From Clostridiales bacterium (GTDB lineage Bacteria > Bacillota > Clostridia > Lachnospirales > Lachnospiraceae), in the NCBI GenBank assembly GCA_022778745.1, contig JALFSR010000015.1, forward strand, positions 18,665 through 82,664: DNA of 64,000 nt, in the 5' to 3' direction. This document shows positions 23,406 to 60,168 of this stretch, in pieces. The notes beneath the pieces were generated by a model, which did no database searches, was not told the DNA's origin, and saw nothing but the letters and a program-made list of their open reading frames with translations. Numbering within the stretch: position 1 is the first letter of the stretch; every line of letters begins with the position of its first letter. The position numbers and the translations under genes were made by a program.

Positions 23406-23506
23406 TCGTAAAGAATCTGTCACTTTATAAAAATATTTATGGAGTGGCAGCTTTTCTGTTTATTTGCACAAAAGGTACAAAGCAGGCTGGAATGCCTGCA
23501 TTCTAT

Positions 23507-23555
23507 TTCATGTTTTGCGGGGGCAAAAAGACATGACCTTTTGACCCTGATATCA
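23507..23555 (-). repeat. Deleted or degenerate copy D of the 187-bp element (left terminus)
   Basis: catgttttgcggg...aaaaag(a)catgaccttttgaccctgatatca matches the terminal part of the copy at 59898-60084. Confidence 0.75.
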
Positions 23556-26794: not shown

Positions 26795-26936
26795 AAAAAG
26801 GCAATGAATAGACAGATCTTTTTATAATAATAAATCAGACAAAAAATTGCGTATTGATGAATAGTCAAAGGCATAAGTTTTTGTCTGATTTTTTTATTTC
26901 TCCTACTCAATTATAAAAAATTATGGTATAATAAAA

Positions 26937-27123
26937 TGATAGCAGGGTCAAAAGGTCATGCGTTTCATGTTTGCATGAAAAAGCATGACCTTTTGGAACC
27001 CGCAAAACATGAGAAAGTAGCCCATTAGGGTGAATTTCGAATGTTTCTAGGATTGCGAGGACACATAGTGCGGAGCAATCCGTAGGTATCATGGGGTCAA
27101 ACTATCTTTTGACCCCAACATCA
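26937..27123 (+). mobile_element. 187-bp MITE-like non-autonomous element, copy A
   Basis: Ends TGATAGCAGGGTCAAAAG...CTTTTGACCCCAACATCA (18-bp imperfect TIR); flanked by TAAAA on both sides; about 95 percent identical by hand alignment to the reverse complement of 59898-60084. Confidence 0.75.
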
Positions 27124-27229
27124 TAAAATACCAGAACCCAAAATTATAGTTTTTTATGCTTATATAGAAAACTACGATTTTAGGATCTGTAAGTACTATG
27201 GATTAAAAAGATAGAGGAGCATTAAGATT

Positions 27230-57954: not shown

Positions 57955-58044
57955 AGAAATACTCCTTTGTTTTAAATTGTGTATTAAGTAAATCAAAATA
58001 CCTAAAAAATATGAAATATTCTCTCATATTGTATAATTATATTT

Positions 58045-58120
58045 TAGGATTGCGAGAGCATGTAGTGCGGAGCAATCTGTAGGTATCATAGGGTCAAAAG
58101 ATATTTTGACCCTAACATCA
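58045..58120 (+). repeat. Partial copy C of the 187-bp element (right ~76 bp)
   Basis: taggattgcgag...gtgcggagcaatctgtaggtatcatagggtcaaaagatattttgaccctaacatca matches the 3' part of copy A. Confidence 0.85.
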
Positions 58121-58239
58121 TTTTAAAGGAAAAGTATAGGTATGGCAATAAAAATCGATAAAAAATATAGTTGTTGGTGGCGTTTGATCATAAAATTTCA
58201 TATGATAAAGAAAGTATTCGTATAAGGGAAACAAAGAGG

Positions 58240-59866: not shown

Positions 59867-59895
59867 TTGTGATAATAATTTTTTTTCGCTATAAT
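59867..59895 (+). promoter_or_regulatory. Sigma-A promoter directly abutting element copy B
   Basis: TTGTGA-17 bp-TATAAT; the element begins 2 bp later. Confidence 0.6.
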
Positions 59896-59897
59896 AA

Positions 59898-60084
59898 TGA
59901 TGTTGGGGTCAAAAGATAGTTTGACCCCATGATACCTACGGATTGCTCCGCACTATGTGTTCTCGCAATCCTAGAAACATTCGAAATTCACCCTAATCGG
60001 GCTACTTTCTCATGTTTTGCGGGTCCCAAAATCATGCTTTTTCATGCAAGCATGAAAAAGCATGACCTTTTGACCCTGGTATCA
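59898..60084 (-). mobile_element. 187-bp MITE-like element, copy B (inverted relative to A)
   Basis: TGATGTTGGGGTCAAAAG...CTTTTGACCCTGGTATCA; flanked by TAATAA on both sides (59892-59897 and 60085-60090). Confidence 0.75.
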
Positions 60085-60168
60085 TAATAATTAAGTTACT
60101 ATATTATTTTATATATCGTAGAAATTATTTTCGGTGGAATTGGATAAAAAATGGAATGGAGGACTTAT

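Follow-up and report, generated by a model that had tools for sequence, protein, structure and literature searches.

Two full copies of a short non-coding repeat of 186-187 bp lie in the window, by which we mean the whole stretch of 64,000 nucleotides that was analysed (C92:18665-82664 of a 2.43-Mb draft assembly with 36% G+C and 109 contigs). Copy A occupies 26937-27123 on the plus strand and copy B 59898-60084 on the minus strand. Both are 187 nt long and about 95% identical to each other; from the 186-nt genome consensus copy A differs at seven positions and copy B at two. Furthermore, two partial copies were located. An old, 5'-truncated copy at 58042-58121 (+) retains 80 nt from the right side of the element, comprising the P4 stem, the 3' hairpin and the right TIR; it is 86% identical to 27045-27124 and is carried by other strains, too. 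Of a decayed copy at about 23506-23555 (-) the left TIR remains, together with half of P2 and the first part of P3. The first-pass annotation had placed both full copies at the same positions with the same length and identity, and its two partial copies proved to be real.

The left TIR of copy A, TGATAGCAGGGTCAAAAG (26937-26954, +), aligns with the left end TGATGTTGGGGTCAAAAG of an IS1182-like insertion sequence (IS) described below, and the right TIR, CTTTTGACCCCAACATCA (27106-27123, +), is near-identical to the right end GGTTTTGACCCCAACATCA of an IS of this type. The imperfect 18-bp TIR reported at first pass, TGATRYYRGGGTCAAAAG, is correct and pairs at 14 of 18 positions. A right subterminal hairpin, GGGGTCAAA / TTTGACCCC, was found at 27093-27116 (+). 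Hairpins are present at each end, as had been claimed. In the flanks of copy A the target-site duplication TAAAA was read at 26932-26936 and 27124-27128; assigning the element's own terminal T and A to the duplication extends it to ATAAAAT. Copy B is flanked at 59892-59897 and 60085-60090 by TAATAA on the plus strand (TTATTA in the orientation of the element). Both duplications were thus located where the annotation had put them.

The body of the element belongs to a known Rfam family. Its nucleotides 1-155 correspond to the core of Clostridiales-1 RNA (RF01699), which consists of the closing stem P1 and three hairpins. With cmscan this core was detected at 26937-27091 (+) in copy A with 109.4 bits and at 59930-60084 (-) in copy B with 122.8 bits, compared to a gathering score of 48 bits, and both copies match the whole model (positions 1-166). 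Hence, the repeat, which had not been recognised as a described family at first pass, does have a described body. An Rfam match had also been named there as evidence against a mobile element; the match was found, coexists with mobility and refutes nothing. The repeat extends 32 nt beyond the model, and this extension is made up of the right hairpin followed by AACATCA. Clostridiales-1 was described in 2010 as a probable non-coding RNA without an assigned function, and its annotation carries no repeat flag (Weinberg et al. 2010, PMC2864571). In the literature no paper linking Clostridiales-1, or Lachnospiraceae, to a MITE was found.

Across the source assembly, 20 full-length copies with 89-100% identity to copy A and about 40 fragments were counted, in agreement with the high genomic copy number predicted from the window. 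Many contigs end within a copy of the element, so the real number must be above these counts. All 20 full copies are intergenic. Their divergence from the consensus is star-like, with 1-15 differences per copy (0.5-8%). The interior of copy B is a breakpoint of contigs from other strains.

The flanks of the copies were compared with 20,000 equally AT-rich positions, reading the element as TGAT...ATCA and counting repeats of at least 5 bp. Of the 19 copies that could be tested, 18 have an exact flanking direct repeat, compared to 0.7% of the control positions. Twelve of these repeats measure 5 bp, five 6 bp and one 7 bp. The duplicated sequence changes from copy to copy (TAAAA, TAATA, TATTA, TAGAA, CAATA and others), as expected for insertion by staggered cuts. 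The reconstructed target context common to the copies is A|T-N3-A|T, and therefore the first T and the last A of the element are ambiguous. Where a terminal base deviates, the flank deviates as well in six of seven informative cases, namely C35 and C85 of the source genome, L055, L240 (both ends, TTGGCAC) and L209 (TTATTAT); L194 is the exception. This pattern favours a true element reading GAT...ATC, which would produce a duplication of 7 bp, occasionally of 8 or 9 bp.

An empty site, one of the checks proposed at first pass, was found between ftsQ and murA. A query of the joined flanks aligned uninterrupted over the junction in the congeneric species G004 and G005, the spacer of which is about 30 nt long and free of the 187 bp. 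This is one locus at species-level divergence, at which a single intact copy of the target is not exactly readable. Among strains of the same species no empty site was detected at four loci, where contigs from other samples either include the element or stop within it. All strains sampled at these loci carry it, and no insertion was polymorphic between strains; as a helper gene was not found in the source genome either, mobility may be confined to the past. Together with the divergence of 0.5-8%, the lack of same-species empty sites points to a family that probably went through an old expansion in the source genome and has since been fixed. Judged from the sequences compared, the element is, or was, mobile. 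On a metagenome scaffold (L132, ENA ERZ28615361) a single element has the right flank known from C64 on one side and the left flank known from C51 on the other; either these two copies recombined or the assembly is chimeric.

Several forms of decay were observed in the source genome. Copies reduced to P2 or to P3 and copies with P2 deleted occur, and mini copies of 72-83 nt keep their duplications. Isolated right-end hairpins of 38 nt are scattered without duplications. Such a spectrum is typical for an ageing repeat family.

A candidate helper was identified outside the source genome. When 20 more IS1182-like loci were scanned for GATNNNNGGGNCAAAAG, one match was obtained, in Fusicatenibacter saccharivorans (G177). 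The IS found there has 1,850 bp, starts with TGATGTTGGGGTCAAAAGCCCC and ends with GGTTTTGACCCTAACATCA; its gene codes for DUF772 and DDE_Tnp_1_6 domains and is broken by one stop codon. Relatives of this transposase were collected from 77 loci of Blautia, Sellimonas, Roseburia, Agathobacter, Catenibacillus and others. In at least 27 of these 77 loci, all from Lachnospiraceae, both TIRs are present in inverted orientation 1.83-1.88 kb apart, and several loci are entire contigs of 1.83-1.85 kb. In the complete genome of Sellimonas catena, the open reading frame of 549 aa is intact in at least four copies. For this protein the best NCBIfam model is NF033551 (IS1182 family) with 140 bits, and the Pfam models PF05598, PF01609 and PF13751 all score over their cut-offs. 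Since the NCBIfam score lies under the curated IS1182 cut-off of 270 bits, the partner transposase would represent a distant subgroup of IS1182.

MITE and 1.85-kb IS have the termini TGATnnnnGGGTCAAAAG in common. Their right ends are almost identical and the right end of the IS has the same subterminal hairpin architecture, GGGGCAAA...TTTGACCCC; on the left side, the agreement between the TIR of the MITE and the end of the IS is limited to 14 of about 18 positions. Clean duplications next to the IS were TAATA (twice), TATTA, TAAAAA, TAATCA, TTGGCAC and TTATTAT, and they were found in only about one third of the IS copies examined. No RF01699 core was detected within the IS. Therefore, the MITE is not a simple internal deletion of it, and the RNA core is cargo, a foreign structured core enclosed by the ends of the IS.

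Within the source genome the partner transposase is absent. It is also absent from the source genus and its near relatives, except for fragments in G002. None of the inward-facing TIR pairs of the source genome encloses a transposase. The search for a transposase gene bounded by the same TIR, as suggested at first pass, was thus negative for the source genome and positive for other Lachnospiraceae, where the 1.85-kb IS fits the description. The presence of PF13751 is not enriched in genomes with many copies of the element (10/27 versus 73/201). As a whole, the annotation's reading of a non-autonomous element with features of DDE transposition, mobilised in trans, agrees with the duplications, the empty site in two congeners and the autonomous IS with the same ends elsewhere.

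Other helper candidates were rejected. In the source genome, TIR pairs up to 6 kb apart hold ordinary genes only, for example those of a TRAP transporter or of a sporulation sigma operon, and the genes that follow isolated left ends are recA, a thiolase and similar ones. Transposases of the rve and IS256 types were discarded as well: the TIR was seen neither at the 15 rve genes of the source genome nor at those of five genomes with many copies. The IS21-like element on C83 and the IS1595-like element on C11 have other ends. Different termini were seen in other IS1182-like elements, too, both at the approximately 40 loci examined at first and, in the overall count, at 30 family-wide loci and in the copies of G077, G151 and G000:C89. 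A hairpin-like patch beside the remnant G077:C33 is no IS end but the diverged start of a coding sequence, and a remnant in G096 is IS5-like. Origin of the 3' hairpin as the deletion junction of an IS bearing the core upstream of its gene was dismissed, too; no recurrent transposase occurs beside the 30 top-scoring copies, and the real IS is free of the core. An IS3-family element at C15:692-2423 adjoins hairpin units only through insertion into copies of the MITE.

Some of these sequences deserve description for themselves. The IS3-family element (orfA/orfB; G000:C15:692-2423) is multi-copy with the ends TGATATGCTC...GCACACCA, and fragments of its ends were seen on C6, C33, C53, C59, C65 and C82. 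By inserting into a MITE, one copy apparently separated the RNA core from the 3' hairpin and duplicated TAC (flanks on C33 and C65), and another one adjoins an isolated hairpin unit. The IS21-like pair at G000:C83:110-3948, a 406-aa rve protein and a 267-aa AAA+ protein on a 4.5-kb contig, has a DUF6431-like ORF before and a TnpB-like ORF after it. The region G000:C89:946-1861 contains a degenerate stretch resembling Clostridiales-1, directly adjoining a truncated IS1182-like transposase gene from another subgroup; this gene is 78% identical to G077:C39, and the arrangement looks like a nested insertion.

The conservation of the fold was investigated with 31 copies from 30 genera. As RNA, copy A alone reaches -83.4 kcal/mol (z = -9.9 versus shuffles), and RNAalifold recovered the Rfam stems from the alignment. 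Covariation was counted on the RNAalifold structure plus the closing stem. Of all cells 91.3% are paired, compared to 77% in shuffles, none of 500 reaching the observed value, and 33-43% with slid partners. Double compensatory changes, with both sides altered, were present at 33 of 46 pairs. On the annotated strand, G-U cells outnumber A-C cells by 59 to 19, two pairs contributing 30 of the 59, and this hints that selection may act on the sense strand. In 14 of 19 copies this strand runs in the direction of the downstream gene; copy B is antisense to its neighbouring gene. A perfect TATAAT was found at most 15 nt upstream in 5 of 20 copies genome-wide, partly because the target resembles a -10 box (a TATAA duplication and the first T of the element give TATAAT). 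In the window, a TATAAT context was noted at 26924-26945, 59867-59895 and 58032-58037. We infer that the conserved fold works as RNA.

RF01699 was matched in 110 of 201 sampled genera of Lachnospiraceae, with more than 100 first-look candidates in some genomes. Between species of one genus the number is patchy and ranges from 0 to 19 matches. In other genera copies with the same ends and 5-bp duplications (TATAA, TTTTA, TAATA) were found, and the plasmid pNP243 of Butyrivibrio fibrisolvens carries one with the duplication AAATA. A different form consists of the core only. These copies, from other genera (L043, L050-L052, L054, L056, L058, L060-L063), have neither the right-end TIR extension nor a duplication; therefore, the fold also occurs off the IS1182-type vehicle. 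A third form is a 195-bp subfamily in G151, another genus, with at least six identical copies (L156-L161). Its ends are TGGTTNNRGTGTCAAAAC, with TGGTTACAGTGTCAAAAC / TGGTTCGGGTGTCAAAAC forming a perfect terminal hairpin of 11 bp, and its duplications are 4 bp long in the same A|N|T context. The identical copies look like recent activity. A helper matching this subfamily was not found in the draft genome of G151. In G011, again another genus, tandem partial Clostridiales-1 units were observed at C25:28529-28921, C26:11927-12356 and C16:50364-50808. They are spaced by about 100-150 nt and cover roughly the element positions 27-164 or 77-154. These arrays are another mode of amplification than dispersed insertion.

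Taken together, the repeat is very probably a MITE with IS1182-like ends which carries the Clostridiales-1 fold, was moved in trans and, after a past expansion, is left without a helper in the source genome. Its ends, TGATnnnnGGGTCAAAAG ... CTTTTGACCCCAACATCA with the right hairpin, would be those of the 1.85-kb IS that encodes the 549-aa DDE transposase, the place of the transposase gene being taken by the four-stem RF01699 fold. The IS transposase, supplied in trans, would bind the shared ends and insert the element at AT-rich, nearly palindromic A|T-N3-A|T sites. Insertion would duplicate 5 bp, or 7 bp counting the ambiguous T and A, and occasionally one or two more. In the source genome, the assembly of which has no helper gene, the family is decaying by deletion of hairpins. 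We infer that the 549-aa transposase itself moves the MITE.

It could be argued instead that the copies are a host small-RNA gene family multiplied by ordinary duplication, with the inverted ends being the closing stem of the RNA. The strong match to RF01699, the strong covariation in all stems, the excess of G-U over A-C cells on the annotated strand (59 versus 19) and the duplication-free, core-only copies of some genera would fit. Ordinary duplication does not agree with target duplications of variable sequence at 18 of 19 copies, however, and the repeat exceeds the RNA model by 32 nt, which belong to a transposon end that an IS has as well. Since the site is empty in congeners, copy numbers range from 0 to 19 within one genus and the orientation relative to neighbouring genes is mixed, this explanation is very unlikely, and as the sole explanation it is already contradicted. 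Still less probable is a hairpin element of the REP/REPIN or IS200/IS605 kind, for which a Y1 (HUH) transposase would act on single-stranded DNA. REP/REPIN and IS200/IS605-type elements insert without target duplication. Hairpins beside both termini and the isolated 38-nt hairpin units across the genome resemble such elements, but duplications were made at 18 of 19 copies, and the isolated hairpins, which are duplication-free, look like truncation remnants. The REP/IS200-like component that the first-pass annotation had seen in the subterminal hairpins was consequently dropped: the partner, an IS1182-like DDE-type IS, has the same ends and itself possesses the right-end hairpin.

A different question is whether the fold of the mobile element matters, either as a cis cofactor (RNA or single-stranded DNA) for its spread or expression or as a regulatory leader exploited by the host. 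The double compensation at 33 of 46 pairs over 30 genera, with 91% of cells paired compared to 77% after shuffling, speaks for it, as do the 14 of 19 copies lying sense toward the downstream gene, the several insertions that recreate a TATAAT box or sit just behind one, and the closest analogue, bcr1, which is transcribed and keeps its structure (PMC3184786). On the other hand, the IS is without the fold, so the transposase needs none on its own element. Copy B is antisense before the neighbouring gene, and whole hairpins are freely lost among copies. We regard a role of this kind as possible, with the weight of probability against it. Similarly tentative is the broader idea that Clostridiales-1 is an RNA or single-strand DNA module selected for a function of its own and repeatedly hitch-hiking on transposon ends; the vehicles would be the IS1182-like ends here, the variant with 4-bp duplications in G151 and the core-only forms elsewhere. 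The fold might serve the transposition or copy control of the element, or be a leader or RNA-stability module for adjacent genes. If this were true, Clostridiales-1 would be a bacterial counterpart of a SINE, with a body under structural selection.

For the preferred reading, a MITE with an IS1182-type partner, the finding is ordinary in kind. It reinterprets an orphan Rfam family, regarded as a small RNA since 2010, as the body of a transposon. Clostridiales-1 is now used as a "regulatory RNA" feature in association studies of the gut microbiome (bioRxiv 10.64898/2026.05.24.727482); if it is a transposon body, how abundant it is depends on mobile-element load and on strain content and does not indicate regulation. 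Copies of the element also break short-read assemblies of Lachnospiraceae. Furthermore, the element offers a tractable case of a DNA transposon that preserves a four-way junction by compensatory changes across a bacterial family.

Four known systems were compared with the element. With the published Clostridiales-1 (RF01699) its body shares the four-stem shape, the covariation and the range in gut Clostridia; unlike the published RNA, it here forms the main part of a transposon, which adds 32 nucleotides, TIRs and target duplications. The link to the IS1182 family is given by the partner, which has the DUF772 and DDE_Tnp_1_6 architecture and shares its TIRs, right-end hairpin and type of duplication with the MITE, whereas other IS1182-like elements from the same bacterial family have different ends, e.g. 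AAAGGGGCTGTGAAAAAAC and AGACYGTCYGAAAAC. Correia/NEMIS, RUP and ERIC elements are likewise short, intergenic and present in many copies, with TIRs and target duplications, and they fold as RNA (PMC3184786). In contrast to their one long hairpin formed from the TIRs, the element folds into a four-way junction, and its internal stems covary independently. Closest to it in kind among described repeats is bcr1 of the Bacillus cereus group, about 155 bp long with 5-bp direct repeats, which is transcribed and the structure of which is kept by compensatory changes (PMC3184786). Both are intergenic, measure about 155-190 bp, have 5-bp flanking repeats and a multi-hairpin fold and show a non-conserved genomic distribution. 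Their sequences are unrelated and their hosts belong to different orders, and for the element described here a candidate helper IS was identified.
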